From assembly GCA_963711075.1 (NCBI GenBank), contig CAVQCW010000008.1, forward strand, positions 37,136 to 101,135: 64,000 nt of DNA. The letters run 5' to 3'. Below the pieces are notes generated by a model, which saw only the letters and a list, made by a program, of their open reading frames with translations, had not been told where the DNA came from and made no database searches. Position numbers and translations under genes: made by a program. Every line of letters begins with the position of its first letter. Positions within the stretch are counted from its first letter, which is position 1. This DNA comes from an uncultured Pseudomonadota bacterium (GTDB lineage: Bacteria; Pseudomonadota; Gammaproteobacteria; Xanthomonadales; Rhodanobacteraceae). This document shows positions 23,573-41,834 of this stretch, in pieces.

Positions 23573-23625
23573 GCGTGCGTATCGCCTTGACACTTGCACA
23601 GGTCAATGCGCTACTATTCGTCAAC

Positions 23626-23682
23626 ACTCGGGAGATGGCATTCCTCCCCGAACCGCCGCAAGGCTGATGATGCCTACCCGAG
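23626..23682 (+). promoter_or_regulatory. Fluoride riboswitch (crcB-motif RNA)
   Basis: GGGAGAUGGCAUUCCUCCCCGAACCGCCGCAAGGCUGAUGAUGCCUAC matches the conserved crcB-motif blocks GGnGAUGG..UUCCUCC..AACCGCC..GCUGAUGAUGCCUAC. It lies about 95 nt upstream of crcB. Confidence 0.9.
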
Positions 23683-23773
23683 CCGGGCAACCCGGCGCTC
23701 GTAGGTGTCGCCGCAAGACGACAAGCCTGCGCGCGCGTGGTTCCCGCACCGAACAAGGACGCGAGGAACCGAC

Positions 23774-24166
23774 ATGACACTCATTGCATTTCTGGCCGTA
23801 GGCGGGGGCGCTTTTTTCGGTGCCGGCCTTCGCTATGCGCTGGGTCTGGCATTAAATCCGGTTTTTCCGACGTTGCCGCTCGGCACGCTCGCCGCGAACC
23901 TTCTCGGTGGCCTGATCATGGGCCTGGCAATGGCGCTGTTCGCGCAATTCCAGGCGTTGCCGCCGGAACTGCGGCTGTTTCTCGCCACCGGATTTCTCGG
24001 CGGACTGACCACGTTCTCAACTTTCTCCGCGGAAACGCTGACACTAATGCTGCGACATGAATATCTATGGGCACTGGCACTGATCAGTGCGCACCTGATC
24101 GGCACGCTGAGCATGACGTTTCTCGGTTTCATCCTGGTTCAAGGCATCGCGAGGGCATGGGCATGA
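23774..24166 (+). CDS. crcB: Fluoride channel CrcB/Fluc
   Basis: 130 aa, four TM helices. Conserved GG..GA..RY near the N-terminus and GFLGGLTTFSTF in TM3. Confidence 0.93.
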   Translation: MTLIAFLAVGGGAFFGAGLRYALGLALNPVFPTLPLGTLAANLLGGLIMGLAMALFAQFQALPPELRLFLATGFLGGLTTFSTFSAETLTLMLRHEYLWALALISAHLIGTLSMTFLGFILVQGIARAWA

Positions 24167-24492
24167 CCAGTCAGCAAGGCGCATACCTGCGCTTTTTCGT
24201 ACACGAGAATCGTCGCCATCACGGCGTCCTGCTCTACGAGTGGTTGCTCGAGCAGGCAAAGAAGATGGGAATCCACGGCGGCAGCGCGTTTCGCGCGATC
24301 GCCGGTTTCGGTCGACACGGCGTCATGCACGAGCAGCACTTCTTCGAGCTGGCCGGCGACCTGACTGTGCGCATCGATTTCGTCGTCGGCGCCGACGAGG
24401 CGGATCGCCTGCTCAAATTTGTCGCCGACGAAAATTTGTCGATTTTCTATGCCCGGCTGGCGACGGAATTCGGCACCACCGGAGTGGACTGA
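24163..24492 (+). CDS. DUF190 (PII-like) protein, a common crcB neighbour
   Basis: LRFFVHENRRHHG.LLYEWLLEQAKKMGIHGGSAFRAIAGFG pattern. ATGA overlap with crcB. Confidence 0.8.
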   Translation: MTSQQGAYLRFFVHENRRHHGVLLYEWLLEQAKKMGIHGGSAFRAIAGFGRHGVMHEQHFFELAGDLTVRIDFVVGADEADRLLKFVADENLSIFYARLATEFGTTGVD

Positions 24493-24496
24493 ATCC

Positions 24497-25438
24497 ATGC
24501 GCGATATTCTGGCCCAGATCGCGCAGGTACTCACGGTATTGCTGCTGGCGCCGCTGCTGCAGGGATTCATCCATCGCTACGAAGAACGTGTGCAGCGCAG
24601 CCGCGGCCCGTCGCTGCTGCAGCCATATCGCGACCTTATCAAATTGTTGCGCAAGCAACTGGTCGTTCCGGAATCGGCGACCTGGGTATTCTGGACCGCT
24701 CCGATCGTCGCGTTTACGGCAATGCTGACCGTGCCGATCCTGATTCCGGTACTGACCAATTACCCGCTGCCGTTGTCGGACATGGGCGACATCCTCGGCG
24801 GTGGACTGATCCTTACGGTCGGCAGCTTCTTCGTGAATCTGGCCGCTCTCGACAGCGGCAGCGCATACGGTGGCATCGGCAGCAGCCGCACGGTCATGCT
24901 CACGATCCTGGCCGAGCCGACGCTGATTCTGGTATTCGTGGGGATCACGCTGATGGCGCAATCGATGCTGCCCTTCGTTGTCAATCATCTACTGGTCGCG
25001 CAGCCGGCGGTGTACTGGAATCCGACTCATCTGTTTCTGGTGATGGCGTTTTTCGTGCTGCTGCTGGTTGAAACCGATCGCCTGCCGATCCACTCGAGCA
25101 CGCATATCGAGGTGTACATGATCGAGGAAGCGCGCATCCTCGAATACTCCGGGCCGCTGCTGGCGTTGCTGAAGTGGGCATCGGCGATGAAGCAGTTCAT
25201 TCTCTACACGATCTTCGTCAACGTGCTGCTGTTGCCGTGGGGGCTATCGAAAACCGGCAGCGTGCCTGGCATCGGTGGCAGCGCGCTGGCGTTGCTGATG
25301 AAATTGGCATTGGTCGCGCTGGCCGTGATCGGCGTGGAGACGATGCAGTCGCGCCTGCGCTTTTACCGCTACCAGGAACCCCTGGCCGCGGCATTTCTTT
25401 TCGCCGTGCTCGCGGTAATCGCCAATCAAATTCGCTGA
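24497..25438 (+). CDS. HyfC/HycD-like (NuoH-like) membrane subunit
   Basis: Aligns by eye to E. coli HyfC blocks (RGP..Q.YRD..KL; EYSG..LAL.KW). It starts 4 nt after the DUF190 stop. Confidence 0.88.
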   Translation: MRDILAQIAQVLTVLLLAPLLQGFIHRYEERVQRSRGPSLLQPYRDLIKLLRKQLVVPESATWVFWTAPIVAFTAMLTVPILIPVLTNYPLPLSDMGDILGGGLILTVGSFFVNLAALDSGSAYGGIGSSRTVMLTILAEPTLILVFVGITLMAQSMLPFVVNHLLVAQPAVYWNPTHLFLVMAFFVLLLVETDRLPIHSSTHIEVYMIEEARILEYSGPLLALLKWASAMKQFILYTIFVNVLLLPWGLSKTGSVPGIGGSALALLMKLALVALAVIGVETMQSRLRFYRYQEPLAAAFLFAVLAVIANQIR

Positions 25439-25455
25439 CTGGAGCCGGCTGACCT

Positions 25456-26136
25456 ATGCTCGCCGCGAATCTCGATCCACTTGCCGCTTCGCTGTTCAGT
25501 CTGCTTGCCATTGGCTGCCTGGTGCTGGCGTTCGTGATGCTCGGCTCGCGCTGGCTCAAGGACTATCTGTATGCGTTCGCCGCGCAGTCCTGGCTGATCG
25601 CGCTGTTGTCGGCAGCGATCGGCTATTACGGTCACTACCGCGAGCTCTATGCGATTGCGGTACTGACCGCATTGTTCCGCGGACTGGTGCTGCCGTGGCT
25701 CGTGCTGCGCATTTTGCGGCGCATGCACGTGACCCGCGAATTGCATCCCATACTGCAACCATCGACCAGCCTGCTGATCGGCGCGGTCGCTGTGGTGTTT
25801 GCCTTGATCGTCGCCACGCGCATCTCTGCGTCTTTGGGCCTGACCCAGAACATTGTCGTGCTGGCACTGACCGTGATGCTGTCGATGAAAATGATCGGCT
25901 TGCTGATTCTGGCTTTGCGTCGAGAAGCAATCAGCCAGATTCTCGGCATCATGCTGCTGGAAAACGGCATATTTCTCGGCTCGCAGATTCTGGTGCCGGG
26001 CATGCCGATGCTGATCGAACTGGTGCTGCTGTTCGATCTGCTGGTCGCCGTCGCCTGTTTCGGCGTGCTCGTGCGCTACCTGATCACGCATGTCGGCAGT
26101 ACCAGCAGTCGGGAATTGCAGAGGCTGACCGGATGA
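25456..26136 (+). CDS. HyfE-like (NuoK-related) membrane subunit
   Basis: ILGIMLLENGIFLGS and the C-terminal ..LQRLTG mirror HyfE IFGYCLMENGSHL and ..LTALKG. Confidence 0.85.
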   Translation: MLAANLDPLAASLFSLLAIGCLVLAFVMLGSRWLKDYLYAFAAQSWLIALLSAAIGYYGHYRELYAIAVLTALFRGLVLPWLVLRILRRMHVTRELHPILQPSTSLLIGAVAVVFALIVATRISASLGLTQNIVVLALTVMLSMKMIGLLILALRREAISQILGIMLLENGIFLGSQILVPGMPMLIELVLLFDLLVAVACFGVLVRYLITHVGSTSSRELQRLTG

Positions 26137-27596
26137 TGATCGATCCGCGCCTGCTCGTCGTATTGATCGCACCACTCGTCGCGATCGTCGTTGCGCTGGC
26201 ATCGCGCCGCGCGCGCGTGGCCGAATGGGCGAACCTGCTCGCCGCCATTGCGGTGTTCATCGCCGCGCTGTCGCTGCCGTTTGTCGCCGCGTCGCCGCGG
26301 ACTTTCGCGGCAGGATATCTTTTTCTCGACGAACTCGGTGCCTGGGTACTGCTGTGCGTGGCCGTGGTTTACCTGCTCGCCTCGTTGCACGCGGTCGGCT
26401 ACATGCGCAGCGACCCGACGCACGACCGGCGCCTGCCGCAGTTCTACGCGCTTTTCGCGGCCTTCGCCCTGACCATGCTGTTCGCGCCGCTGGTCGCCAA
26501 TTTGGGGGTGTACTGGATCGCGATCGAACTGACCACGCTGGTCAGCACGTTCCTGGTCGGCTTCGAGCGCCGCGCGACGAGCATGGAAGCAGCATGGAAA
26601 TACATCATCATCGTCTCGGCCGGTATCAGTCTGGCCCTGCTCGGCACCATAGTGCTGTACTGGGGCGGCAGTCTGGTGCTCGGACCAACCTACGATCTCA
26701 CCTGGCAGTCGTTGGCGGCAGTCGCGCCGCGCATGAATCCAATGTTGTTGCGGCTGGGATTTTTGCTGATGCTGATCGGCTACGCAGTCAAGGTCGGTCT
26801 TGCGCCCATGCACAGTTGGCTGCCGGACGCCCACAGCGAAGCGCCCGCTCCGGTGTCCGCGATGCTTTCCGGTGCGCTTCTCAATACGGCGATGCTCGGC
26901 ATCGTGCGCACGCTGGCCGCGACCGACGCAGCCGCCGCCGGCACCATGCCGCACGCGGCATTGATCGTGCTCGGCGTGCTTTCGATTCTGATCGGTGCGC
27001 TGTTCATCGTGCGCCAACGCGACATCAAACGGCTGATGGCCTATTCCAGCGTCGAACACATGGGCATCATCGCCTTGGGTTTCGGTTTCGGCGGCGTATT
27101 CGGCGTCGCTGGCGCCCTTTACCAGATGCTCAACCACTCATTGAACAAGTCGCTGCTGTTTTTCGGCGCCGGCAATGTCATGCGCCGATACGGAACCACG
27201 AAGATCGGCGAGATCCGGGACGTGTTGTCGCAGTTTCCGGTATCCGGCCCGCTGTGGCTGATGGGTGCGATCGCGATCACGGGCGCGCCGCCATTCGGCC
27301 CGTTTCTTGGCGAGCTGAGCGTCCTGCGCGCCGGCTGGAGCGGCATCTGTCTGTGGGCTTCGGCAACCATGCTGATTGCGCTGATCGTGATCTTCATCGG
27401 CTTCCTGAATCATTTTCGCGTCATGTATTTCGGCGAGCCGTTATCCGATCCGCCAACCGGGATACGCACGCCGGCTATCAGCATCTTGCCAATGTGGATC
27501 GCGGCGATCGCGTTGCTGGTGTTCGGACTGTGGTGGCCACAAAGCCTGCGCGGTTTGTTCGGCAACATCGCCGCCAGTCTGGGAGCCACGCCATGA
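26133..27596 (+). CDS. HyfF/HyfD-like antiporter-type (NuoN/M-like) membrane subunit
   Basis: Proton-conducting membrane transporter blocks (GLAPMHSWLPDAHSEAP, MAYSSVEHMG). ATGA overlap with the previous gene. Confidence 0.88.
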   Translation: MMIDPRLLVVLIAPLVAIVVALASRRARVAEWANLLAAIAVFIAALSLPFVAASPRTFAAGYLFLDELGAWVLLCVAVVYLLASLHAVGYMRSDPTHDRRLPQFYALFAAFALTMLFAPLVANLGVYWIAIELTTLVSTFLVGFERRATSMEAAWKYIIIVSAGISLALLGTIVLYWGGSLVLGPTYDLTWQSLAAVAPRMNPMLLRLGFLLMLIGYAVKVGLAPMHSWLPDAHSEAPAPVSAMLSGALLNTAMLGIVRTLAATDAAAAGTMPHAALIVLGVLSILIGALFIVRQRDIKRLMAYSSVEHMGIIALGFGFGGVFGVAGALYQMLNHSLNKSLLFFGAGNVMRRYGTTKIGEIRDVLSQFPVSGPLWLMGAIAITGAPPFGPFLGELSVLRAGWSGICLWASATMLIALIVIFIGFLNHFRVMYFGEPLSDPPTGIRTPAISILPMWIAAIALLVFGLWWPQSLRGLFGNIAASLGATP

Positions 27597-29074
27597 TGCG
27601 CGGAACCAACGAACGCGATTGCAACGCCGGGCAATTGCGCGCCGCGGTTGCGGATTTGATCGCTGCGGGCGGTCGCATGCAGATGGCGTGGTGCTGGTTT
27701 CCGGAAAAATCAAAATCCGAAGTTTGCTATCTGGCCGCGCCGGGCGCACGCCGGCCACTGGAACTATGGCGTTGTCGCGTCGACAATGGAATTTTGCCGA
27801 GTCTGGCCGGTCTGGTTCCGTTGCTGGGTTGGTACGAACGCGAAATCACCGATCTATGCGGTGTGCGTTTCGACGGTCATCCGGAACCGCGTCCGCTGCT
27901 GTTCGATGGGCTCGACCATGCGCCGATGGATCCGGCACATGTGTATGCTGCGGCCAGCGGAAATGCCCGCGCACCTGCCTTCGTCCCCGAAGTACTGGGC
28001 GACGATGTCCAACAATTGCCGTTCGGTCCCGTGCGCGCCGATGTAGTCGAGTCGGCGCAGTTTCAATTCTTCTATCTTGGCGAACACATCCTGCGTTACC
28101 AGCCGCGACTGTTTTTCAAGCACCGCGGCATGGAACAGCGCTTCACGGGTCTCGCCCCAAGCGCCGGCACAGCGTTCGCCGAGCGCGTTTCCGGCATCGG
28201 AAGCGTGGCTCACGCGCTGGCCTATTGCCAGGCGATCGAGGCCGCGGCAGGTTGCGGCGTGCCCGTTCGTGCGCGCCGCATTCGCGTGCTGCTCGCAGAA
28301 CTCGAACGGCTATACAACCATCTGCATTACTTCGGCCATCTGGCCGCCACGACCACACTCAAGGCAGGTCACGCGGAGGGAACGCTGCTCGAAGAAGGCA
28401 TCAAGCAGCTCATCGCACGCCTGTGTGGCAGCCGCTTCGGGCGCAATCTGCTGACACCGGGAGGATTGCGTCGCGATGTCGTCATCGCTGCGGATCTTTC
28501 CGCGCGGCTCGATGAGCTGGAAAAATCCGTACGCTGTTATCTGGAACAACTCGAACGCACGACGAGTTATCTGGATCGCCTCATCACGACCGGCCCGCTA
28601 CCGCGGCAGACTGCGTTCGACCAGGGCGCGACCGGCCCGGTCGAGCGCGCCTCGGGGTTGGATCGCGACATGCGACGCGATCATCCCTACGCCGCATACG
28701 ATGAACTGAAAATTGCGGTCCCCGTTCGCGATGACGGCGACGCCTACGCGCGAGCGCGAGTACGCATGGCAGAAATCATCGAGATTTTTGCGGCCCTGCG
28801 CCAGATCCTGGCGCGTCTGCAACCAGGCGACGTTCGTGTTGACTGCACGCCGCCACCCGATTCCGAAGGATTGGGCTGGGCCGAATCGCCACGTGGCTCG
28901 CTCTACTACGCCGTGCATGTGGACGCCGCGCAACGTCTGGCGCGAGTCAAGATCAAATCGCCGTCGTATTCCAACTGGCGCGTATTCCCGTTCACGGTGC
29001 ATGACACCAACATGATGGATTACGCGATCAACGAAGCCAGTTTCGGTTTGTCCATTGCCGGTTGTGATCGCTGA
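27593..29074 (+). CDS. HycE/HyfG-like fused NuoC-NuoD-type 'large subunit' lacking the Ni-Fe cysteines
   Basis: NuoC-like N-domain (LLGWYEREITDLCGVRFDGHPEPRPLL). The large-subunit core has the L1 position reading RVSGIGSVAH and the C-terminus reading LSIAGCDR-stop. ATGA overlap with the previous gene. Confidence 0.88.
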   Translation: MMRGTNERDCNAGQLRAAVADLIAAGGRMQMAWCWFPEKSKSEVCYLAAPGARRPLELWRCRVDNGILPSLAGLVPLLGWYEREITDLCGVRFDGHPEPRPLLFDGLDHAPMDPAHVYAAASGNARAPAFVPEVLGDDVQQLPFGPVRADVVESAQFQFFYLGEHILRYQPRLFFKHRGMEQRFTGLAPSAGTAFAERVSGIGSVAHALAYCQAIEAAAGCGVPVRARRIRVLLAELERLYNHLHYFGHLAATTTLKAGHAEGTLLEEGIKQLIARLCGSRFGRNLLTPGGLRRDVVIAADLSARLDELEKSVRCYLEQLERTTSYLDRLITTGPLPRQTAFDQGATGPVERASGLDRDMRRDHPYAAYDELKIAVPVRDDGDAYARARVRMAEIIEIFAALRQILARLQPGDVRVDCTPPPDSEGLGWAESPRGSLYYAVHVDAAQRLARVKIKSPSYSNWRVFPFTVHDTNMMDYAINEASFGLSIAGCDR

Positions 29075-29123
29075 TGAACACAATGCAATTTTCCCAGACA
29101 AGATTCGGTTCCGGAGTTCACCG

Positions 29124-29924
29124 ATGCCCATCTGGACGCTGATTGGACTGGCCAAAGGCAGCGCAACTACCGCGTGGCCTGCGCATGACGGCGACGACGG
29201 GCAGACCGGAGTGTCCGGCATGCCGCGCATCACTGGCGAGCGTTGCGTCGTGGATTGCCGCGCCTGCGCCGAGGTCTGTCCGACACGCGCCATCGGCCTT
29301 GATGCCGCCGGAAATTTGCAGACTCTCGATTATGGACGCTGCATCGCGTGCCAGTTGTGTGTGCAGGCGTGTCCTTCGGGCAGGCTGCAAGCCAGCAACG
29401 ACTGGGCGTGCGGCGTGCGCGATCGCGGCGAACTGCACTGGAGCGATGCGACGACTTCGCCCGCGGCAGAGCAGTTGCGCAAGCACATCGAGCGCAGTTT
29501 CAAATGCAGTCTGCATATTCGGCATGTCGATGCCGGCTCGTGCAACGGTTGCGAATCGGAATTGCAGGCGTTGAACAATCCATACTACAACCTGCATCGG
29601 CTCGGCATTTTCTTCACGGCATCGCCACGCTTCGCTGATCTGCTGCTGGTCACCGGCCCGGTCACGCACGCGATGCGAGAACCGCTGCTGGCAACCTACG
29701 AAGCCATGGCTGAGCCACGCCTGGTAATGGCGACGGGAACCTGCGCCGTTTCCGGCGGCATCGCTGCAGGCGGATACGCATGTGGCAGCGGACTCGACGG
29801 CGTGTTGCCGGTGGATCTGTGGCTGCCGGGCTGCCCGCCGAATCCGGCGGCAATCATCGAAGGATTGCTGGTGCTGCTCGATCGCGCGAAGCCGCGCCTG
29901 CGCGGAGGCCGCTTCGATGAATGA
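29124..29924 (+). CDS. Fusion of a 2x[4Fe-4S] ferredoxin (HycF/HyfH/NuoI-like) with a hydrogenase small subunit (HycG/HyfI/NuoB-like)
   Basis: N-half: CVVDCRACAEVCP and CIACQLCVQACP. C-half: DAGSCNGCE, SPRFADLLLVTGPVT, GTCAVSGG, LPGCPPNP (the four NuoB-type Cys are retained). GGAG lies 7 nt upstream of the ATG at 29124. Confidence 0.88.
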   Translation: MPIWTLIGLAKGSATTAWPAHDGDDGQTGVSGMPRITGERCVVDCRACAEVCPTRAIGLDAAGNLQTLDYGRCIACQLCVQACPSGRLQASNDWACGVRDRGELHWSDATTSPAAEQLRKHIERSFKCSLHIRHVDAGSCNGCESELQALNNPYYNLHRLGIFFTASPRFADLLLVTGPVTHAMREPLLATYEAMAEPRLVMATGTCAVSGGIAAGGYACGSGLDGVLPVDLWLPGCPPNPAAIIEGLLVLLDRAKPRLRGGRFDE

Positions 29925-31884
29925 AATGATCGGAGTCGCTCTCGCCTGCTGGCTGCTCGCGCTGGTTCTTGCCATCGCGGGACGCGCGTTGACGCCTGCG
30001 CGATGGCTGCTGGCCGCAGGTGCCGCAGCGATGATTGCGTGCGCGTTGCTGACACTACCCGGCTCGACGGCAACGCTTTCGCTGGGCTTCGGCCCCGGCG
30101 CGCACGGCAGCGTGTTTCGACTCGATGCTGCGGCGTTGTGGTTGTCGCTGTTCGGCTTCATGCCCGCGCTGGCGGCGTGCTTGCTGGGTACGCCGGCAAG
30201 CGAAAAACGCGGCTGGATCGCTGGTGCAGCGCTGGCATCAATCGCTGCACTTGGCGTATTCGGCTTGCAAGACGCCGCATCGTTTCGGGTCGCCTGGGAA
30301 ATCATGAGTCTGGGCGGTGCGTGCATGTTGCTTGGCGAAAGATTCGATGGCCCGCAATCGGGTGCATCCAGTTTGTTCATGCTTGGCTTGCTCGAAGTCG
30401 GAGCTGTCGCCCTGATCGCGTCCATGCTGATCCTCGGTCATGCCTCAGGCACGTTTGCCTTCGCGGCTTTTCCGTCGGCAGCGGCGAGCCTGTCGCCGGG
30501 GTTGCGCCTTGGCGTCGGCATGCTGTTGCTGGTCGGTTTCGGCGCCAAGCTGGGCCTGTTGCCTTTTTACGAATGGCTGCCGCGCGCGTACGCATCGGGC
30601 AGCGGTGCCAGTGGCGCAATGTTGTCCGGCGTCATTTTGAATGCGGCGTATTTCGCGCTTGCGCGCGGATTCACGCAGTGGCTTCCGGCGGATTTCGCGC
30701 TCGGCGCAATCGTCATCGCGCTGGCCATCGTGAGCGCGATTCTGGCCATTCTTTACGCGTTCCAGGAAGAAGACTGGCGCGAATTGCTGAGTTTTTCGAC
30801 GGCGGAAAATGCCTGCATCGCGATGGCCCTGCTCGGCGCATCGATGTTGTTCCGAAGTCGCGGTCTGGAAACCTTCGCGGCACTGGCCTGGGTGGTTGCA
30901 CTGTTGCATCTTGGCGCACACGCGCTGGCGAAAGGCGCTCTGTTTTGTGCCGCCGACGGCATCTACCGCGCCAGTGGCAGCTATCACATCACCCAATGCG
31001 GTTGGTTCAAGCGCAGCCCGCTGCTGTTCGGCATCGGCGTCGTATTCGCCGGCATGAGTCTGGCGGCGATGCCGCCGCAGGCCGGATTCGTCAGCGAGTG
31101 GTTCGCCTTCCAGACCCTGTTCCAGGGATTTCATCTTCCCGGAATGGGCGGGCGCCTGGTGCTGGCGCTGGCCGGCGCCGGACTCGCTCTGACCGCCGCG
31201 ATCGCATTCGCCACGTTCGTCAAAGTCGTTGGCATTGGCGCACAAGGCGCAAGCACGCATGAGGGTACGCGTGTACCCGGCGCGCACGCGTTTGCAACGG
31301 GCGTTCTCGGTTTGCTGGTGCTGGCGCTTGCAGTCGGCATGCCATGGTGGCTGCACTATCTGGACCGCGCCGCCAGTCTTGCTTTCGGCGCGCACACGGC
31401 CACTGCAATGCACGATGGGCCGATCCTCGTACCGCTCTCCAAATTCGCTTTCATCTCGCCGACGTTGCTGATTATTGTTTGTCCGCTGCTCGCGATCGTG
31501 CCGATCGCGCTGTTGTGGTGGTCCATGCGCAGACATCCGGCACGCGGCGCACCGGTCTGGTACGGCGGGTTTGCGCGCGATTCGACGCGGGTGGCGACGA
31601 CCGCACTGACTTTTTCCAATGCGATGCGCGTGTTCTACAGTTTTATCTATCGCCCAACGGTCGATGTCGCGCACGAACATAGTGAGCGCGAATATTTCGT
31701 GCACCGATTGCGCTTGCGTCACGGTGTCGCAGCGTTGTTTGAACCGCTGCTGTTTGGCCCCTTGCGGCGCGGCGTGGACGCGCTCGCCGGCGCCTTGCAA
31801 GGCATGCAATCCGGACAGATGAACTTCTATCTTGCCCTGATCGCACTGCTGCTGGTTGTCGCGTTGTCCATCGCGATCTGGTAG
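29917..31884 (+). CDS. HyfB/HycC-like (NuoL-like) antiporter-type membrane subunit
   Basis: 655 aa, polytopic, with blocks FGAKLGLLPFYEWLPRAY and AENACIAMALLG typical of HyfB/HycC. 8-nt overlap with the previous gene. Confidence 0.85.
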   Translation: MNEMIGVALACWLLALVLAIAGRALTPARWLLAAGAAAMIACALLTLPGSTATLSLGFGPGAHGSVFRLDAAALWLSLFGFMPALAACLLGTPASEKRGWIAGAALASIAALGVFGLQDAASFRVAWEIMSLGGACMLLGERFDGPQSGASSLFMLGLLEVGAVALIASMLILGHASGTFAFAAFPSAAASLSPGLRLGVGMLLLVGFGAKLGLLPFYEWLPRAYASGSGASGAMLSGVILNAAYFALARGFTQWLPADFALGAIVIALAIVSAILAILYAFQEEDWRELLSFSTAENACIAMALLGASMLFRSRGLETFAALAWVVALLHLGAHALAKGALFCAADGIYRASGSYHITQCGWFKRSPLLFGIGVVFAGMSLAAMPPQAGFVSEWFAFQTLFQGFHLPGMGGRLVLALAGAGLALTAAIAFATFVKVVGIGAQGASTHEGTRVPGAHAFATGVLGLLVLALAVGMPWWLHYLDRAASLAFGAHTATAMHDGPILVPLSKFAFISPTLLIIVCPLLAIVPIALLWWSMRRHPARGAPVWYGGFARDSTRVATTALTFSNAMRVFYSFIYRPTVDVAHEHSEREYFVHRLRLRHGVAALFEPLLFGPLRRGVDALAGALQGMQSGQMNFYLALIALLLVVALSIAIW

Positions 31885-31934
31885 CAACGCAAAGCCGTCG
31901 ACCTGAGTTTCGTTGGCACGCATGATAGGCTGAA

Positions 31935-33068
31935 ATGTCCGATACCAAGGAAATGGAATCGATGTCGCACTCCAGAGTTTCGCAACTGCTTGCGCAAGCC
32001 GGGCTCACCCTGAACGGTGGTGCCCCGTACGATCCGCAAATCCATAACGATCATTTTTACGCCCGCGTCGTCACCCATGGCTCAATCGGGCTCGGCGAGT
32101 CCTACATGGACGAGTGGTGGGACGTGCGCGATCTCGACGCCATGCTGTATCGCATTCTCGCCGCAGGACTGGATCGAAAGGTCCACGCCATCGACGATGC
32201 GTGGCTGTGGCTCAAGTCGACATTTCTGAACCTGCAACGTGGGCACCGCGCCTATGTAATCGGCGAACATCACTACGACATCGGCAACGATCTTTTCGAG
32301 GCAATGCTCGGCAAGCGCCTCGTATACAGCTGCGCGTATTGGAACACCGCAACAAATCTCGACGACGCCCAGGAAGCCAAGCTCGATCTGGTTTGCCGAA
32401 AACTCGGACTGAAAGCCGGTATGCGCGTGCTCGACATCGGTTGCGGCTGGGGCGAGGCATTGAAATATGCCGCCGAGCGTTATGGCGTATCCGGCGTCGG
32501 CATCACGGTATCGCAGGAACAGGCGGAATTCGCCCGTGATCTGTGCAAAAACCTGCCGATCGAGATTCGCGTACAGGACTACCGCGAACTTGACGAAAAA
32601 TTCGATCGCAGCTTTTCCATCGGCATGTTCGAACACGTCGGCGTGAAAAACTATCGCACATATTTCGAGATGGTGCGCCGTTGCCTGAACGACGATGGCC
32701 TGTCGCTGCTGCATTGCATCGGCTCCAACGTGTCCACAAACCGTACCGATCCGTGGATCGCAAAATACATATTCCCCAACTCGATGCTGCCGTCCGCAGT
32801 GCAGATCGCCGACGCGCGCGAAGACCTGTTCGTGATCGAGGACTGGCACAATTTCGGCGCCGACTACGACGCGACGTTGATGGCCTGGCGAGACAATTTC
32901 GATAGCGCATGGCCACGACTGCGCGACACCTACGGCGAACGCTTCCGGCGCATGTGGCACTTCTACCTGTCCGCCTCGGCTGCCGTGTTCCGTGCACGTC
33001 GCGACCAATTGTGGCAACTGGTTTTGAGCCCGAACGGGGTGCCGGGCGGATACCGCGCACCGCGATGA
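31935..33068 (+). CDS. cfa: Cyclopropane-fatty-acyl-phospholipid synthase
   Basis: GSIGLGESYMDEWWD and the SAM motif VLDIGCGWGE, with length and blocks as in E. coli Cfa. Confidence 0.92.
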   Translation: MSDTKEMESMSHSRVSQLLAQAGLTLNGGAPYDPQIHNDHFYARVVTHGSIGLGESYMDEWWDVRDLDAMLYRILAAGLDRKVHAIDDAWLWLKSTFLNLQRGHRAYVIGEHHYDIGNDLFEAMLGKRLVYSCAYWNTATNLDDAQEAKLDLVCRKLGLKAGMRVLDIGCGWGEALKYAAERYGVSGVGITVSQEQAEFARDLCKNLPIEIRVQDYRELDEKFDRSFSIGMFEHVGVKNYRTYFEMVRRCLNDDGLSLLHCIGSNVSTNRTDPWIAKYIFPNSMLPSAVQIADAREDLFVIEDWHNFGADYDATLMAWRDNFDSAWPRLRDTYGERFRRMWHFYLSASAAVFRARRDQLWQLVLSPNGVPGGYRAPR

Positions 33069-33084
33069 TGCGGCACAACGTCGC

Positions 33085-33750
33085 ATGAATCCGGTGCCAA
33101 CCGAGTACACCGCGATCATATCGACACCAGCGCCACGGGGTAGAATCAGGGCATTTGAAAATCGGGACCACCACGTGACCATCAGTGTCGAACCAACCGA
33201 GGATCTGCTGCGCCGCATTCGCACCGGTGAATCCGCGGCCAAGCAGGCCTTGTACGAACGTTGCCTGCCGTTGTTGCGACGCTGGGCGCACGGGCGCCTG
33301 CCGCACTACGCGCGCGATATCGCCGATACCGACGATCTGGTCCAGGTGACACTGCTGCGCGCGCTCAATCGTCTGGACGACTTCAACTCCGATGGCGGCA
33401 GCGGCAGTTTTCTCGCGTACCTGCGCCAGATATTGCTCAACGAAGTTCGCGGCGAATTGCGCAAACGCCAGGTTCGTGGCAGCAGGCTCGATATCGACGA
33501 TATGCCTTTGCCCGACGATACCGCTTCCGTCGTCGAACATCTGGTCGGCGAGCAGCGTATCCGCAATTACGAGGCCGCGCTGGGCACGCTGGACCGCGAG
33601 CAACAGGCGCTGATCGTGATGCGCCTGGAATTCGGCATGAGCTATCAGGAAATGGGCATCGAGACCGGTAGTTCGCCGGATGCTGTTCGGATGCGTGTCA
33701 CTCGCGCATTGAAGACTGTTGCCAGTCGCATCGCGACGGACAGAGACTAG
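33085..33750 (+). CDS. ECF-type RNA polymerase sigma-70 family factor
   Basis: Region 2 (DTDDLVQVTLLRALNRLDDF) and region 4 HTH (MRLEFGMSYQEMGIETGSSPDAVRMRVTRAL). The start may be later (GTG 33175). Confidence 0.85.
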   Translation: MNPVPTEYTAIISTPAPRGRIRAFENRDHHVTISVEPTEDLLRRIRTGESAAKQALYERCLPLLRRWAHGRLPHYARDIADTDDLVQVTLLRALNRLDDFNSDGGSGSFLAYLRQILLNEVRGELRKRQVRGSRLDIDDMPLPDDTASVVEHLVGEQRIRNYEAALGTLDREQQALIVMRLEFGMSYQEMGIETGSSPDAVRMRVTRALKTVASRIATDRD

Positions 33751-33754
33751 ACTC

Positions 33755-35359
33755 ATGCCCGGCAAATCCGGAACAAGAAAACAAATCGATGAAGCCCTGT
33801 CGGCCATCGCGGACGGAGCTCCATTGGCCTGGAGAGAGATCGAATCCGGATTGGACGATCCAGCCCAGGTCGAAGTGTTGCGTTTGCTTGACGACGTCGC
33901 CGGCGCGTATCGCCGGGAGCGCAACGCGACTTCCGCAGCGCCGAATCATGCGATGTTCCGCTGGGGTCCGCTTGAAGTGGAAGCGATGATTGGCGAAGGC
34001 AGCTACGGCAATGTGTACCGCGCATTCGACCCGTGGCTGGGTCGACACGTCGCCCTGAAGCTTGCGCAACTGGCGACGGGTACCGGCAGCGGGCTCGACG
34101 AGGCACGCCGCCTGGCGCGCCTGCGCCATCGCAACGTGCTGCATGTTTACGGCTGCGCGGTGCACGACGGTCGCTCCGGACTGTGGAGCGAGCTGATCGA
34201 AGGTCGCACCCTGGCTGCGGTGGTTGCAAGCGATGGCGCATTGAGCGTCGAAGAAACCATGCGCATTGGCCGCGATCTGGCCAATGCATTGGCCGCTGTC
34301 CACGCTGCAGGCCTCGTACACGGCGATGTGAAAGCGGACAACGTGATGCGTGAAAGCGGCGGTCGCATCGTGTTGATGGATTTCGGTGCCGGCGGCGACC
34401 AGCGCTTGCTCGCCAGCCGCCAACTGATTTCCGGCACACCGGCCTACCTGTCGCCGGAAGTGCTTGACGGCGCGCCGCTGAGTATACAAAGCGACATTTA
34501 CGCGTTCGGCGTGCTGCTGTTTTTCCTGCTCAGCGGGCGTTATCCATACGCGCATTCCGATTTCGGCGCATTGCGCGACGCGCAGGCAGCCGGCGAGCGA
34601 GCGGAACTGCGCGCGTTGCGCCCGGATCTCGACCCGGATCTTGGCGCGCTGGTCGAAGCGTGCACGGCCACGGATCCCGCTCTGCGGCCGCAGAGCGCAT
34701 CTGCGCTTGCCGCCCGATTGACTCGGCTGGCCCAGCCGCAACCGCACGCACTTTCGCATCCACGCCGCTGGATCGGTGTGGCGGCCTGCGCCGCCGCCGT
34801 CGCCGCGTGCACGCTGCTGGCATGGCCGCAGCTGTTTCCGCCGGCCTGGGCCAGCACGATTCAATTCCTGCGCGTTGAACCCGGAGGCAATGTTCCACTC
34901 GACGCAAATTCGAGCCTGCGCGTCGGCGACCGGATACGCCTGCTCGCGAGCAGCACGCGCGACACGTATCTGTACGTTCTCAACGAAGACGCCGCCGGCA
35001 ACGCGACGGTATTGTTCCCGTTGAACGCTACGGCACGCAATCCACTGCATGCCGGCGTGCAACTGCAGCTGCCCGGCGGCACGGGATCGACGCAGGCGTA
35101 TGAAGTCACTGCCGATTCCGCACGCGAGGAATTTCTCGTGGTGGCGTCGCTGGCGCCGCTGCCGGATCTGGAAGGAGAACTCAACAGTTGGCGTCACGCG
35201 GCAACTGCCGACACAGCACCGACACGCGGAGTTGGCGCAATCGTGGATGTATCCGCGCCGCTGCTGCGTGGCGCGCATCTTCACGCGCTGCTCGATCGAC
35301 TCCGTCAGGACCCGGCCCACGTGCGCGTCTGGCAATACAGCTTTACGCACCGCAACTGA
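33755..35359 (+). CDS. Membrane Ser/Thr protein kinase with C-terminal periplasmic DUF4384-like domain
   Basis: Hanks motifs GEGSYGNVY, VALK, HGDVKADNVM, DFG, GTPAYLSPE. TM helix WIGVAACAAAVAACTLLAW. C-terminal VGDRIRLLASSTRDTYLYVLNEDAAGNATVLFP is DUF4384-like. Confidence 0.88.
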   Translation: MPGKSGTRKQIDEALSAIADGAPLAWREIESGLDDPAQVEVLRLLDDVAGAYRRERNATSAAPNHAMFRWGPLEVEAMIGEGSYGNVYRAFDPWLGRHVALKLAQLATGTGSGLDEARRLARLRHRNVLHVYGCAVHDGRSGLWSELIEGRTLAAVVASDGALSVEETMRIGRDLANALAAVHAAGLVHGDVKADNVMRESGGRIVLMDFGAGGDQRLLASRQLISGTPAYLSPEVLDGAPLSIQSDIYAFGVLLFFLLSGRYPYAHSDFGALRDAQAAGERAELRALRPDLDPDLGALVEACTATDPALRPQSASALAARLTRLAQPQPHALSHPRRWIGVAACAAAVAACTLLAWPQLFPPAWASTIQFLRVEPGGNVPLDANSSLRVGDRIRLLASSTRDTYLYVLNEDAAGNATVLFPLNATARNPLHAGVQLQLPGGTGSTQAYEVTADSAREEFLVVASLAPLPDLEGELNSWRHAATADTAPTRGVGAIVDVSAPLLRGAHLHALLDRLRQDPAHVRVWQYSFTHRN

Positions 35360-35455: not shown

Positions 35456-38400
35456 CTACGACAGCGCGTTGCGGCGCCGCTGTGCGCGCTTCTCCTTGCG
35501 GCGTTTCGAGCGACGGGCGAAGACGAGGTAAATCGCCGGGGTCGAGAGCAAGGTGAGACTCTGCGAAAAAACCAGTCCGCCGAGCATGGCGATACCGAGC
35601 GGGCGGCGCAACGCCGCGCCCGTGCCAATGCCGACGACCAACGGCACCGAAGCCAGAATGGCGACCATGGTGGTCATCATGATCGGGCGAAAGCGTGCCA
35701 GGCAAGCTTCACGCACGGCCTCGAGCGGTGCCTTGCCTTCGCGTTCGGCGACCAGCGCGAAGTCGATCATCATGATCGCGTTTTTCTTCACCAGACCGAT
35801 CAGCAGCACCAGCGCCATGATCGCGACGATCGACAGTGGCGTGCCAGTTGCCAGCAACGCCAGCAGCGCGCCGACTCCGGCAGCAGGCAAAGTCGAGAGA
35901 ATCGTCACCGGGTGAATCAGGTTCTCGTACAACATGCCCAGCACCAGATACACCGCAATGATCGCGCCGATCAGCAGCAGCGGCATTTGCGTCATCTGCT
36001 GCTGGAAACGTCGGAACGAGTCGCCGAAGCCGAGCGTGATATCGCCGGGCATGCGCATGTCGCTGATGGTCTTTCTTATTTGCTCGGTAGCCTCGCCCAT
36101 GCTCACGCCTGGCGTGAGGTTGAAACTCAGCGACATGCTGGTCATCTGGTTGGTGTGGCTGATCTGACTCGGCGCGATGGTGGATTGCTGCTGCGCGATC
36201 TCACTGATCGGAATCATCTGTCCGTTGCCGGATCGCACGTGGATGGTTTCCAGCGCAGCGGGTGACGACGCCTGCGATGGCAGTGCCGTCAGCACCACCT
36301 GATATTGGTTGGTATCGGAGTAGATGGTCGAGATCGTGCGCTGCCCGAACGCGTTGTAGAGCGCATCATCCACATCCGCCATCGACACGCCCAGTCGCGC
36401 TGCCTTGGCGCGATCGACCACCATGTTCTGCAAGAGCGAGGCATCATCCAGATCTGTGCCGACTTCCGTGAACATCGGATTCTTCTGCAATTGCGCCTGC
36501 AACTTCGGCAACCACTCCTCGATCTCTGTGGCACTGTTGCCCTGCAGCTCCACGCTGTACTGGCCACCCTGACTGGTGCCGCCCGAGCCGCTGGGCAGGT
36601 CTTCATGCGCGCGCAGTCGCACATCCAGATCGGGATAGCGCGCCACTTTGGCGGACAGCCGCGCCACGACCAATTGCGTGGATTGCTTGCGACCTTCGCC
36701 CAGCGGTTTCAGCTGGATGCTGATCCATCCGCTGGCGCCGCGTCGACCGGTACCGATCGACGCGCCGACATATTCGACGTCCGGATCGTCGCGCAACGCC
36801 TTCATGATCGTGCTGGTGCGAGTTTCGAGATCGGCGAACGACATCGTCATGCTGGCGCTGGCACGACCCCAGATCAGGCCGCTGTCCTGCGGCGGGAAGC
36901 TGGTACCGGGAACTTCATGAAACAGGAAAATCGTGAGGATCAACAGCGGCAGCGGTGACCATGCCATCAGCCTGTGGTGCTTGTGCAGTGTCCAGTCCAG
37001 CATGCGCGTGTACGCGGCGAGCATGCCGGCGTGGAAACGATCCAGCGCCCGTCCGAACCGCGACGGGACCTCATCGCGCACGGTATGGTGACGCAGGTAG
37101 AGGCCGCAAAGCGTCGGCGTCAATGTGAGCGAGACCAGCATCGACACGAAGATGGCGGCGACCAGCGTCACCGTGAACTCGCGGAAGAACATGCCGATCA
37201 CGCCCGGCGCAAACAGGATCGGAGTGAATACCGCAATGAGCGAAGCCGTGATCGCGATAATGGTGAAACCGATCTCCTTGGCACCCGCGAGCGCTGCCTG
37301 CATCCGCGTTTGTCCCTCGTCCAGATGCCGGATGATGTTCTCGATCACGACGATGGCGTCATCGACCACGAACGTCAGCGCGATCACCAGCGCCAGCAGC
37401 GACAGGTTGTCCAGCGTGTAACCCATCACATACATCACGCCAAAGGCGCCGCACAACGACAACGGTACCGCCGCCGCTGCAATCAGTGTCGGCGCCATGC
37501 GGCGCAGGAACAATGCCATCGTAAGCACCACCATCATCAGACTGATCAGCAACGTGATCTGCACGTCGTCGACGGAGTCGCGGATGGTTGGTGTACCGTC
37601 AAAATACGGCGTCAATTGCGTTCCCGGAGGGAGCAACCCGCGCAGACCGGGCAATTCCGCCTTGATCGCATCTACCGTCTGAATCACGTTGGCATCGGAG
37701 CGCTTGAAAATCTGCAACTGGATTGAGCGCTTGCCGTTGAAGTAGGCGGCCTGGAAACTGTCCTGCGCGCCCTGGTACACGTTGGCGACGTCGCGCAGAT
37801 AGATGGGCGTGCCGGCATTATTGGCGATGACCAGGTCGGCAAAATCGCGCGCCGTGTGCAACTGGTCGGTTGCGGATATCGCGGTCGCGGTCTTGCCGTC
37901 GCTGAGCATGCCTTGCGGCGATCGGACATTCGCTGCGGTGACCGCATTGCGAATCTGGTTGGACGAAAGGCCCAGGGCTTCGAGCTTGTGCAGATCCACG
38001 TCCACGCGCACCGCAGGTTGGGCGCTGCCGGAAACCTCCACCGACGCCACACCCGGCAACTGGCTCAGTCGCGGCTGCAGCAAGGTGTTGGCCGCGTCGT
38101 AAAGTTCGGACAACGGCTGCGTGTCGGAAGTGAGCGCCAGCTCGATCGCCGGATCGTCGTTAGGATTGGCCTTGTGCCACTGCGGCATCTGCAATCCGGC
38201 GGGCAGATCGGGCACGGCAGCGTTCACCGCCGCGTCGACCTGCTGCGCGGCAGAGTCCAGATTCACATCGGAATCGAAGAAGAGGATGACGAAGCCGCTG
38301 CCGTTGGAGCTGCGCGAGCGCATCATCTCTATGCCCGGCGTCTGACCCAGATGACGTTCCAGCGGCGCGATGACCGTGGTCGACATCGTGTCGGCGTTGG

Positions 38401-38560
38401 CGCCCGCCTCGCTCGCGGCGACCCAGATGGCCGGAAACGACACCTGTGGCAGCGCACTGATTCCCAGCAGCGTGTAACACAGGCCGCCGGCCACCAACAC
38501 GCCCAGTGCCAGCAGCGAGGTGCCGATCGGTCTGCGGATGAACGGGCCGGAAATGTTCAT
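35456..38560 (-). CDS. mdtC: RND multidrug efflux permease, MdtC-like
   Basis: FIRRPIGTSLL N-terminus and a 12-TM RND architecture. It is the second of two tandem RND genes after an MFP gene. Confidence 0.85.
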   Translation of the reverse strand: MNISGPFIRRPIGTSLLALGVLVAGGLCYTLLGISALPQVSFPAIWVAASEAGANADTMSTTVIAPLERHLGQTPGIEMMRSRSSNGSGFVILFFDSDVNLDSAAQQVDAAVNAAVPDLPAGLQMPQWHKANPNDDPAIELALTSDTQPLSELYDAANTLLQPRLSQLPGVASVEVSGSAQPAVRVDVDLHKLEALGLSSNQIRNAVTAANVRSPQGMLSDGKTATAISATDQLHTARDFADLVIANNAGTPIYLRDVANVYQGAQDSFQAAYFNGKRSIQLQIFKRSDANVIQTVDAIKAELPGLRGLLPPGTQLTPYFDGTPTIRDSVDDVQITLLISLMMVVLTMALFLRRMAPTLIAAAAVPLSLCGAFGVMYVMGYTLDNLSLLALVIALTFVVDDAIVVIENIIRHLDEGQTRMQAALAGAKEIGFTIIAITASLIAVFTPILFAPGVIGMFFREFTVTLVAAIFVSMLVSLTLTPTLCGLYLRHHTVRDEVPSRFGRALDRFHAGMLAAYTRMLDWTLHKHHRLMAWSPLPLLILTIFLFHEVPGTSFPPQDSGLIWGRASASMTMSFADLETRTSTIMKALRDDPDVEYVGASIGTGRRGASGWISIQLKPLGEGRKQSTQLVVARLSAKVARYPDLDVRLRAHEDLPSGSGGTSQGGQYSVELQGNSATEIEEWLPKLQAQLQKNPMFTEVGTDLDDASLLQNMVVDRAKAARLGVSMADVDDALYNAFGQRTISTIYSDTNQYQVVLTALPSQASSPAALETIHVRSGNGQMIPISEIAQQQSTIAPSQISHTNQMTSMSLSFNLTPGVSMGEATEQIRKTISDMRMPGDITLGFGDSFRRFQQQMTQMPLLLIGAIIAVYLVLGMLYENLIHPVTILSTLPAAGVGALLALLATGTPLSIVAIMALVLLIGLVKKNAIMMIDFALVAEREGKAPLEAVREACLARFRPIMMTTMVAILASVPLVVGIGTGAALRRPLGIAMLGGLVFSQSLTLLSTPAIYLVFARRSKRRKEKRAQRRRNALS

Positions 38561-38570
38561 GCTGCGCCAA

Positions 38571-41500: not shown

Positions 41501-41834
41501 CGAACTGCAGGGTGATGCTGGACAGGCCCACGGAACTGTTCGAGCTCATCATCGTGAGCCCGCTGATCTGGCCGAGTTGCTGTTCGAGCGGCGTGGTGAC
41601 CAGGGTGGCGACGGTGTCCGCACTTGCACCCGGATATTGCGTTGTCACCACCAGACTGGGCGCTTCGACCTCGGGCAATGCCGAGACGGGCAACGCGCGA
41701 TAGCCGATGATGCCGAGCAGCAACACCGCCATCATCAACAGCGACGTCGCGATCGGACGGCGGATGAAGATGCTGGAAAATGCCACCGGTTCCATGTTCG
41801 CCGGTTCCATGTTGGAGTCTTCGTCAGCGCTCAA
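38571..41834 (-). CDS. mdtB: RND multidrug efflux permease, MdtB-like (start ambiguous: TTG 41834, ATG 41810 or ATG 41795)
   Basis: FIRRPIATSLLM N-terminus and RND architecture. See the tandem 15-nt repeat at its 5' end. Confidence 0.85.
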   Translation of the reverse strand: MSADEDSNMEPANMEPVAFSSIFIRRPIATSLLMMAVLLLGIIGYRALPVSALPEVEAPSLVVTTQYPGASADTVATLVTTPLEQQLGQISGLTMMSSNSSVGLSSITLQFAIDTNLDVAAQDVQSALRTARLPGSLPYPPIYKRVNPADAPIMTLALTSESMPLRDVNDFADSILAQRLAQITGVGLVSIAGNVRPAVRVQVDPGKLGNLGLTMEDVRSALTQANVNAAKGSLNGAVQTYQIGTNDQLQSASDYANTIISYKNGAPVKLSDVARVIDGVENDQLAAWANGKPAVLLDIRRQPGANIINTVDLIQQTLPSLRSALPAGVHLQAFADRTVTIRASVHDVEMSLLIAIALVVAVIFMFLRRLWATVIPAVAVPLSLMGTFAVMSAVGFSLDNLSLMALTVATGFVVDDAIVMIENIVRYLEQGKEGREAAEIGAREIGFTVLSLTVSLIAVFLPLLLMPGVTGRLFHEFAWVLAIAVAISMLVSLTLTPMMCAYLLKRGSLPVGDEAAMENRRGFYARMLGWYEASLDWVLRSRRITMVIATASLLLTGLLYVIIPKDLLPEQDTGIITGVVQADSDIAFPAMENYTKAVVAALRHDEAVAGVAAFIGAGEVNPTLNQGQVSIVLKARGKRGSLDKVVADLQRDVAGIAGVQLFLKPVQDITLDTTVAPTAYQYAVSEISARDLVPYAQKMVQAIKQLPELVDVGSNLAMNGRALQLNIDRTSASRLGVPVQTIDDTLYDAYGQRQISTIFTQQNQYRVVLEVAPQFRNRSDLMNMLRVRSNGASGALTGTNATSLGMLKSSNSSTATGIGQSNTGILTGGGNTVPLSTLASATTTDAQLVIAHQNQLPAVIISFNVAPGYSLSQAVDGINRTAASMNFPPQVRTGFIGEAAEFSSSVGNELLLVLAAIIVIYIVLGVLYESYIHPLTILSSLPPAGVGALLALMLFGMPLSVDGIVGIVLLVGIVKKNAIMMIDFAITAQRGGMNAHDAIRRACLLRFRPIMMTTFAALFGALPLALGNGIGSELRRPLGVSIVGGLLLSQLVTLYTTPVIYLYMERFQEWLHAWRAQRGELAAQGAE
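41784..41813. repeat. Tandem 15-nt duplication (caccggttccatgtt / cgccggttccatgtt) at the mdtB 5' end
   Basis: Read directly from the sequence. It encodes MEPAN-MEPVA on the minus strand and duplicates an ATG. Confidence 0.8.

Follow-up and report, generated by a model that had tools for sequence, protein, structure and literature searches.

An Ehr-type membrane complex without NiFe ligands is linked to a fluoride riboswitch in Rhodanobacteraceae and beyond

Why would a fluoride-sensing RNA stand ahead of genes that look like those of a formate hydrogenlyase? The question is raised by a stretch of 64,000 nucleotides (nt; below, the window) from an uncultured bacterium of the Rhodanobacteraceae (GenBank assembly GCA_963711075.1, contig CAVQCW010000008.1, positions 37,136 to 101,135). 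Within it, a fluoride riboswitch aptamer of the crcB motif is followed on the same strand by crcB, encoding the Fluc fluoride channel, by a DUF190 gene, and by a module of six genes for a membrane complex related to complex I and hydrogenase-4. Since the association between the riboswitch and "formate hydrogen lyase" was published in 2010 and 2012, the window is a further example of it. Genes encoding formate hydrogen lyase are listed downstream of crcB-motif RNAs by Weinberg 2010 (PMC2864571), and a 2024 review citing Baker 2012 counts the enzyme among the commonest riboswitch-associated ones and reads the link as anaerobic formate metabolism or fermentation (PMC11139923). The original prediction for this DNA, made from the sequence alone, had pointed to such a listing, and these two sources bear it out, Baker 2012 as the review cites it. 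The published genes show the same arrangement as the window, with a crcB-motif RNA in the 5' untranslated region of Hyc/Hyf-like genes and, in many cases, crcB as well. The window departs from the published reading in that its large subunit has no NiFe ligand at all and no formate dehydrogenase is seen. In the searchable literature, which covers Baker 2012 through citation, we found nothing on a NiFe-less nature of the complex, on an invariant linkage or on the leader reading frames described below, and no functional study of the riboswitch-linked complex.

The module occupies 24497-31884 on the plus strand, and its genes were assigned to families with Pfam and NCBIfam. It begins with a NuoH/HycD/HyfC-like membrane subunit of 313 amino acids (aa; 24497-25438; PF00146, 119.6 bits), 4 nt after the DUF190 gene. 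After a 17-nt gap comes a HyfE-like membrane subunit with a NuoK-like C-terminus (226 aa; 25456-26136), which matches the "hydrogenase 4 membrane subunit" model PRK11492 at 62 bits, under its cutoff of 136, and PF00420 weakly. An ATGA overlap joins it to a HyfF/NuoM,N-like antiporter-like subunit (487 aa; 26133-27596; PF00361, 177.7 bits), and another leads into the NuoC+NuoD/HycE-like large subunit (493 aa; 27593-29074). A 49-nt gap separates the latter from a fusion of a 2x[4Fe-4S] ferredoxin of the HycF/NuoI type with a NuoB-like domain (266 aa; 29124-29924; PF01058, 100.7 bits, plus Fer4 families). The last gene overlaps the fusion by 8 nt and encodes a HyfB/HycC/NuoL-like antiporter-like subunit (655 aa; 29917-31884). 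Upstream of the module, also on the plus strand, crcB runs from an ATG at 23774 to 24166 (130 aa; PF02537, 91.8 bits). Its product carries a TFSTF motif at residue 80 and scores above both equivalog cutoffs, at 140.8 bits for NF010792 (cutoff 125) and 100.6 bits for TIGR00494 (cutoff 80.45). The DUF190 (COG1993) gene overlaps crcB by an ATGA (109 aa; 24163-24492; PF02641, 70.1 bits). Its protein has a weak Pfam match to P-II, below the cutoff, and the solved structures closest to it are those of TM0021 and PH1503, both labelled "hypothetical". Translation of the open reading frames (ORFs) finds all these junctions just as the original prediction had described them.

Is the complex a hydrogenase? 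The large subunit is annotated as one: an identical protein, recorded from the Rudaea sp. metagenome-assembled genome to which the window belongs, is named "nickel-dependent hydrogenase large subunit". Among solved structures its best relative is HycE (PDB 7z0s, chain E; E 9.9e-46). In the alignment, however, the NiFe ligands C241 and C244 of HycE fall on Ser200 and Gly203 of the window protein, and C531 and C534 fall on Ser487 and Gly490, the latter pair counted gap-free to the C-terminus. The hydrogenase L1 motif RxCGxCxxxH and L2 motif DPCxxCxxR are absent, the corresponding stretches reading ERVSGIGSVAH and LSIAGCDR. Across 81 homologues, the four ligand positions are occupied by Ser in 81, Gly in 78, Thr or Ser in 81, and Gly in 81. 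The protein ends at R493 without a C-terminal extension. This residue aligns to an Arg beyond which HycE continues, and which we take to be the processing site of the maturation endopeptidase. In a scan of 1.84 billion representative proteins, the large subunit falls inside a large radiation of cysteine-less relatives. All four cysteines are kept in 23 of about 125 full-length representatives, and the nearest 15 (at 50% clustering) are all without them. Going by these residues, the module is almost certainly not a NiFe hydrogenase.

Nor does the large subunit look like that of complex I. Tyr87 of the quinone site of Thermus Nqo4 aligns to Gly201 and His38 to a Val, and the protein scores below the cutoffs of the NuoD models of NCBIfam. 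With neither a NiFe site nor the quinone Tyr/His of complex I, the complex is expected to make no H2. The original prediction had allowed that it might not, and the loss of the four cysteine ligands together with the end of the protein at the Arg strongly supports this. H207, C212, C491 and R493 are invariant or nearly so across the 81 homologues. C212, C491 and H207 flank the former NiFe positions, C491 directly following the last lost ligand, and these three residues are candidates for a new redox-active site. To judge from the alignments, the pocket is not a hydrogenase centre, nor is it a quinone site of the canonical complex-I kind, but it is under strong constraint.

The residues of the rest of the complex are conserved as well. 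In the ferredoxin and NuoB-like arm, the eight ferredoxin and four NuoB-like cluster cysteines are conserved in 74-75 of 75 homologues, and three [4Fe-4S] clusters are predicted from these ligands. The NuoH-like subunit conserves E140, E192, D194, E205, E211 and E216 (71 homologues). In the HyfF-like subunit, Glu132 in transmembrane helix (TM) 5, Lys220 in TM7 and Glu394 in TM12 are conserved, and the central Lys of TM8 is replaced by Asn250. The HyfB-like subunit likewise conserves E128, K211 and E394 and has an Asn, in an LN motif, for the TM8 Lys. Homologues throughout the family keep the TM8 Asn in both antiporter-like subunits, whereas NuoM, MbhH, MbsH and HycC have Lys there. Complex I proper was considered as a candidate and is ruled out by the missing quinone residues and by the lack of NuoE/F/G-like genes in the operon. 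An Mrp antiporter is ruled out by the conserved redox arm, and no MrpE/F/G-like genes are among the Pfam matches of the window.

Judged by its residues and subunit content, without a tree, the module is an Ehr-type ("energy-converting hydrogenase related") complex. Ehr complexes have a large subunit without the metal-binding cysteines and no assigned function (Marreiros 2013, as cited in PMC6728331 and bioRxiv 10.1101/2019.12.18.881540). The module has a group-4-like large subunit that lacks the NiFe cysteines and is nested among cysteine-less representatives, and it keeps the NuoB-like, the NuoH-like and two antiporter-like subunits (PF01058, PF00146 and PF00361 twice). The Ehr complex of Mycobacterium tuberculosis, Rv0082-Rv0087, resembles it in its cysteine-less large subunit and its NuoB-like, NuoH-like, HyfE-like and two antiporter-like subunits, and presumably holds the same six subunit types. 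What distinguishes the clade of the window from Ehr complexes generally is the fluoride riboswitch, the fusion of a NuoI-like ferredoxin to the NuoB-like subunit, and a usual position beside crcB. The M. tuberculosis operon is described as controlled by Rv0081 (PMC6728331, bioRxiv 10.1101/2019.12.18.881540).

Comparison with better-known systems gives the same picture. The Hyc (PDB 7z0s) and Hyf complexes of Escherichia coli provide the best solved relatives of the large and HyfB-like subunits (HycC, 7z0s chain C, at E 5.9e-24 for the latter) and have the same subunit types, and Hyf-like names fit the four membrane subunits of the window module. Unlike them, the module has no NiFe ligands, no HycI-type extension and no FdhF or HycB, and consists of six genes only. 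Its subunits also all score under the Hyc/Hyf equivalog cutoffs: at most 373 bits against 610 for the HyfF models, and 266 bits against 667 for "hydrogenase 4 subunit B" (NCBIfam). With complex I, MBH, MBS/Mbx and the photosynthetic NDH-1 it shares a NuoB/C/D/I-type arm set on a membrane arm of NuoH and antiporter-like subunits, as well as conserved Glu and Lys channel residues. Its minimal arm without NuoEFG resembles those of the ferredoxin-using MBH and NDH-1. From complex I it differs in the two quinone-site residues and in the central Lys of TM8, replaced twice. A true hydrogenase or formate hydrogenlyase is ruled out by the missing NiFe ligands, and no hyp genes, hycI domains or formate dehydrogenase are found among the annotated genes of the window and the related loci described next. 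The sole Molybdopterin Pfam hit belongs to a nitrate/nitrite-oxidoreductase-like ORF in one locus (L034; L numbers are those of our survey); the weak aptamer hit next to this ORF was not confirmed by Rfam.

Is the pairing of aptamer and module a peculiarity of the window? A survey of other genomes, which the original prediction had suggested, says that it is not. The genome loci, which belong to Gamma- and Alphaproteobacteria and Acidobacteria, are from the best 80 of the 438 species genomes with a hit to the large subunit, at 58-84% identity. Aptamers were located with a covariance model, R1, built from 24 aptamers of related loci and the window, which gave 157 matches in 1.56 Mb. The order of the six module genes is identical in 80 of 80 loci. 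All 72 loci in which the first module gene is complete at its 5' end have a same-strand aptamer upstream of the module, ending no more than 400 nt from that gene in 66 and typically 110-130 nt from it. A second set of 80 loci was taken from metagenomes with a probe, P0123, that had been meant as an outgroup. Its hits are 45-51% identical to P0123 and apparently belong to the main clade, and these loci therefore serve as an independent replicate. In them, the aptamer lies, again on the same strand, 3.15-3.93 kb upstream of the large-subunit gene in all 50 loci with enough upstream sequence. Rfam model RF01734 confirms the module-proximal aptamer, above its gathering score, in seven of seven spot-checked genome loci, the lowest scorers included. 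The linkage of riboswitch and module is far beyond chance.

The position of crcB is more variable. By our own count it immediately follows the module in about 30 loci and precedes it in 5, and it adjoins the module in at least 35 of the 72 genome loci; these counts are lower bounds because tblastn with so short a query is insensitive. The commonest layout has the aptamer right before the module and crcB after it. In the window and its closest relatives (L001-L003), crcB and DUF190 are instead fused to the module, 4 to 25 nt from it, and share one aptamer with it, whereas in L027 and L079 crcB-DUF190 and the module stand in tandem, farther apart, each with an aptamer of its own. Of the arguments for control of the module, too, by the single riboswitch of the window, this contrast is the strongest available. 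On such comparative grounds we consider fluoride control of the module highly probable. The unit in the window would be co-transcribed and translationally coupled.

How far does the linkage reach? In L161, from a clade 45% identical, the gene order is the same, and RF01734 matches at 47.1 bits ahead of a Usp gene and the module. A second aptamer there precedes a Na+/H+ exchanger operon, with MutS-like, dynamin-like and HEAT-repeat neighbours. In L164, from Ktedonobacteraceae, the order is again the same, and separate genes encode the ferredoxin and the NuoB-like part. An aptamer pair precedes the Ehr module and a divergent PP2C gene, both members below the gathering score of 34: 5600-5657 on the plus strand at 23.4 bits and 5275-5331 on the minus strand at 26.8 bits. 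These have GAUGA for GAUGG and GAUAGC for GAUGAC, apparently covarying in the pseudoknot, and may represent a variant aptamer class. In an Ehr locus of Nitrospirae (L162 and L163), the genes are ordered differently and both the ferredoxin domain and the aptamer are missing, which indicates that the fluoride link marks one broad Ehr clade and not all Ehr complexes. Paired MutS domain-V genes and a dynamin-like GTPase with a HEAT-repeat protein recur beside riboswitch-controlled Ehr modules in distant phyla (L161, 617-5345; L164, 1-2935).

How might the switch act on the module? In 66 loci (within L005-L079) the aptamer stands directly before the module, and its 3' tail pairs with the AGGAG-type Shine-Dalgarno sequence of a short leader ORF. 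This ORF has 15-48 codons, starts 22-40 nt past the aptamer, and stops at or over the first start codon of the module in an ATGA or TGATG arrangement (for example L031, 6760-6890, and L046, 3569-3695). It is present in 60 of the 66 loci, against 4.3 +/- 1.9 in shuffled controls. The peptide is conserved within clades only (MRGPxxPP, MTCIVLS, MAYRK). Since it is not conserved across clades, what carries the switch on to the module appears to be the act of translating the ORF and not the peptide made. The regulatory logic predicted for these direct loci is clearer than that for the window.

In the window, the original prediction had placed a crcB-motif RNA at 23630-23677, which turns out to be the core of an RF01734 match at 23622-23683 (+), with 54.3 bits against the gathering score of 34, an E-value of 2.7e-12, and model positions 1-64 of 64 covered. 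It is the sole gathering-level Rfam hit of the window, and R1 gives it 60.5 bits. Helices P1 and P2 (GGAG/CUCC and GCC/GGC pairs) carry no non-canonical marks in the cmscan alignment, and the loop GGCAU is complementary to the 3' tail AUGCC in the pseudoknot. Close relatives of the window carry aptamers in which about 50 nt are inserted between P1 and P2 (L002, 5966-6076; L003, 6029-6083); the former scores 37.7 bits and passes the Rfam gathering score, and the latter scores 25.1 bits with R1. A promoter-like site at 23587-23617 (+), inferred from the sequence, consists of TTGACA (23587-23592) and TACTAT (23612-23617) and stops 5 nt upstream of the aptamer. Its -35 hexamer and a -10-like hexamer of the form TAnnAT are conserved in L001-L003. 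A consensus scan of 22-34 kb returned no sigma-70-like promoter, and missed this site because its spacer is 19 nt.

The 3' end of the aptamer lies 90 nt upstream of crcB. The expression platform (23673-23773, +) is conserved in L001-L003, and its minimum free energy (MFE) fold has a z-score of -2.49. One predicted hairpin, CCUAC (from 23673) with GUAGG (23701-23705), can sequester the 3' tail of the aptamer. The fold continues with a GCAA-tetraloop hairpin at 23707-23722 and with a hairpin, GGUUCC (23739) to GGAACC (23770), that encloses the crcB Shine-Dalgarno sequence GAGGAA (23763-23768). Neither the terminator scan nor the MFE fold finds a U-tract or an intrinsic terminator in the leader, and in this model the platform looks translational, not terminator-based. 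The first position behind the switch is taken by crcB in the window, and control of the genes downstream would pass through the chain of ATGA overlaps and short gaps, through polarity, or both. The absence of any hairpin plus U-tract between 24166 and 31884, claimed from the first inspection, holds up: the scan of 22-34 kb gave 12 weak terminator-like sites, none convincing, where shuffled sequences lead one to expect 11.5, and the spacers at 29075-29123 and 31885-31934 have no hairpin plus U-tract.

What, then, would a fluoride-induced Ehr complex do? Hydrogen fluoride enters the cell and yields a proton and a fluoride ion, which leaves through Fluc on the membrane potential, and every turn of the cycle uses up one proton and one charge; under fluoride stress the cytoplasm becomes acidic and the proton-motive force is drained (PMC11139923). 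Our preferred reading is a fluoride-induced, redox-driven H+ or Na+ pump that compensates for the protons and charge with which HF entry and fluoride export burden the cell. Rising cytoplasmic fluoride would act through the single riboswitch to turn on the operon for CrcB, the DUF190 protein and the six-gene Ehr-class complex. The complex would take electrons from a low-potential carrier such as ferredoxin and hand them to an acceptor, and the energy of the transfer would expel H+ (or Na+). This would restore the membrane potential and the cytoplasmic pH drained by HF entry, by its dissociation and by electrogenic export through Fluc. Redox turnover, the electron donor, and ion pumping with its direction are all things we infer. 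The conservation of both the predicted three-cluster wire and the channel residues fits a redox-driven pump.

Further support comes from the other aptamers of the related loci. The genes behind them were identified by a Pfam scan of all candidate ORFs, which replaced naive calls by first ORF and by third-position GC (GC3) bias that had given many false ORFs in high-GC DNA. In the 80 loci, non-module aptamers precede DUF190 (14 cases, the commonest), crcB (6), cfa-like genes (6), metallophosphoesterase (4), enolase (3), IlvD (2), glutamine synthetase (2), a dynamin-like gene with a HEAT-repeat gene, phosphoglycerate mutase, and a pyrroloquinoline quinone (PQQ) dehydrogenase. Those among the aptamer-led genes that are known from the fluoride response (crcB, enolase, metallophosphoesterase and the Na+/H+ exchanger) support the reading as a pump. 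Among riboswitch-linked classes, Na+/H+ antiporters rank second in frequency (PMC11139923).

Several points weigh against this reading. No dehydrogenase module is encoded in the operon, and the change from Lys to Asn in TM8 might alter or abolish canonical proton transfer. With no recognisable terminator in the platform of the window, and with no clear switching logic in its fold, control of the seven genes downstream of crcB rests on coupling, polarity and comparative evidence only. The survey covered only the best 80 of 438 genome hits and the best 80 of at least 490 metagenome hits. Taking both sides together, we regard the redox-driven pump as having about an even chance of being correct.

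An alternative that deserves consideration, though we think it unlikely, is that the complex, itself insensitive to fluoride, stands in for a poisoned energy-conserving step such as proton extrusion by the F1Fo-ATPase. It would then be a counterpart to the extra enolase copies under riboswitch control and would not answer HF/F- cycling in particular. Copies of housekeeping enzymes (enolase, IlvD, GlnA and phosphoglycerate mutase) do stand behind aptamers in the related loci, enolase is inhibited by fluoride (PMC11139923), and the conserved redox and channel residues would suit a stand-in equally. The idea overlaps largely with that of the pump, differing only in what is compensated. The frequent direct adjacency of crcB points to a functional tie with fluoride export, and the module has no established paralogue among known fluoride-sensitive complexes.

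Alternatively, the complex could be a secondary, Mrp-like cation/proton antiporter in which the Fe-S arm is structural or regulatory and no sustained electron flow occurs. This would account for the two Mrp/Nuo-type antiporter-like subunits, and for an operon with no donor module and a large subunit with neither a NiFe nor a canonical quinone site; antiporters are also common in the fluoride regulon, L161 being a case. It is made quite unlikely by the 12 cluster cysteines and H207, C212, C491 and R493, nearly invariant in 75-81 sequences from Proteobacteria to Acidobacteria, since such conservation of cluster and pocket residues argues for a working redox site.

Could the module of the window escape the riboswitch? 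A translational platform by itself regulates the first ORF only, and a fluoride-independent promoter inside crcB or DUF190 could drive the module, leaving only these two genes to the riboswitch. We hold this to be improbable, as every relative places the aptamer in control of the module, the window lineage has the 4-nt gap, the ATGA overlaps and no second aptamer, and the promoter scan found no internal candidate.

It is more doubtful still that the complex handles fluoride itself, as an energy-driven exporter of F- or HF or by binding fluoride or a metal fluoride in the former NiFe pocket. The aptamer link is invariant, many loci have no crcB beside the module (within the limited sensitivity of tblastn), and the remodelled pocket is strictly conserved, with small residues (Ser/Gly/Thr/Gly) and two conserved Cys. 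On the other side, crcB adjoins the module in no fewer than 35 of the 72 genome loci, the sequences give no sign of an anion site, and we know of no precedent for anion transport in this superfamily.

Finally, a genuine formate hydrogenlyase or hydrogenase-4, consuming protons by making H2 or shifting the cell to fermentation under fluoride, has behind it the database names ("nickel-dependent hydrogenase large subunit", "formate hydrogenlyase subunit 5"), the interpretation of the 2024 review (PMC11139923) and HycE as best solved relative, but is scarcely credible against NiFe cysteines replaced in 78-81 of 81 homologues and in all 15 nearest representatives, the lack of any extension past the Arg, subunits every one of which is below its equivalog cutoff, and annotated loci without hyp, hycI or formate dehydrogenase.

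Where does the fluoride unit end? The original prediction had a riboswitch heading a unit of eight genes; the riboswitch is confirmed, its control of the module is supported by comparison, and the 3' boundary has become uncertain, since cfa and further same-strand genes follow. The cyclopropane fatty-acyl phospholipid synthase gene cfa (31935-33068, +; NF008686, 588 bits, cutoff 400) begins 50 nt past 31884 on the same strand, the spacer being the second of the two without a terminator, and is possibly a ninth gene. A cfa-like gene also follows the last module gene by about 9 nt in L001 and by 1.3 kb in L002 and L003, and the six cfa/CMAS-like genes with fluoride aptamers of their own are in L011, L022, L034, L069, L071 and L074. 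The recurrence of cfa behind the module and behind separate aptamers suggests that the response to fluoride includes a remodelling of the membrane.

An extracytoplasmic function (ECF) sigma factor gene (33085-33750, +) lies 17 nt downstream of cfa, and a Ser/Thr protein kinase gene with DUF4384 comes next on the plus strand, its ORF overlapping the end of the sigma factor gene (33085-35359 for the two). This pair is not seen after the module in L001, where ORFs of the length of resistance-nodulation-division (RND) transporters are found on the opposite strand. Farther along the window, 35456-41834 (-) and 43501-46566 (-) hold two ORFs of RND-transporter length and then a 1021-aa CHAT-domain/TPR protein. 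The first of the ORFs (35456-38611, -) is confirmed as AcrB-family. These ORFs and the CHAT/TPR protein appear unrelated to the fluoride unit. Elsewhere, some loci are "fluoride islands" with five to six R1 aptamer hits in about 21 kb: L052, from Ancylobacter dichloromethanicus, and L015, L031, L053, L069, L071 and L074.

What does this mean for the fluoride response and for the Ehr family? The "formate hydrogen lyase" entry carried in the fluoride regulon since 2010 is misleading for these sequences, which cannot be those of a NiFe hydrogenase. An Ehr clade always found under a fluoride riboswitch has a defined inducing condition, which makes the question of its function directly testable, and cultured carriers exist in Dyella, Rhodanobacter, Frateuria, Martelella and Ancylobacter. 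The finding also points beyond export itself to its energetic cost, as a burden to which bacteria of acidic soils devote about 7.4 kb of operon. In its general form our proposal is that a widespread Ehr clade, in Proteobacteria, Acidobacteria and probably Chloroflexota, may be a dedicated redox-driven H+ or Na+ pump of fluoride stress with a metal-free pocket, expressed only when fluoride accumulates and paying for the cycle of HF entry and fluoride exit through Fluc. We advance this tentatively, as a possibility that falls a little short of being probable. If true, it would be the first physiological role for any Ehr complex, and the "formate hydrogenlyase" entry of the regulon would be corrected.

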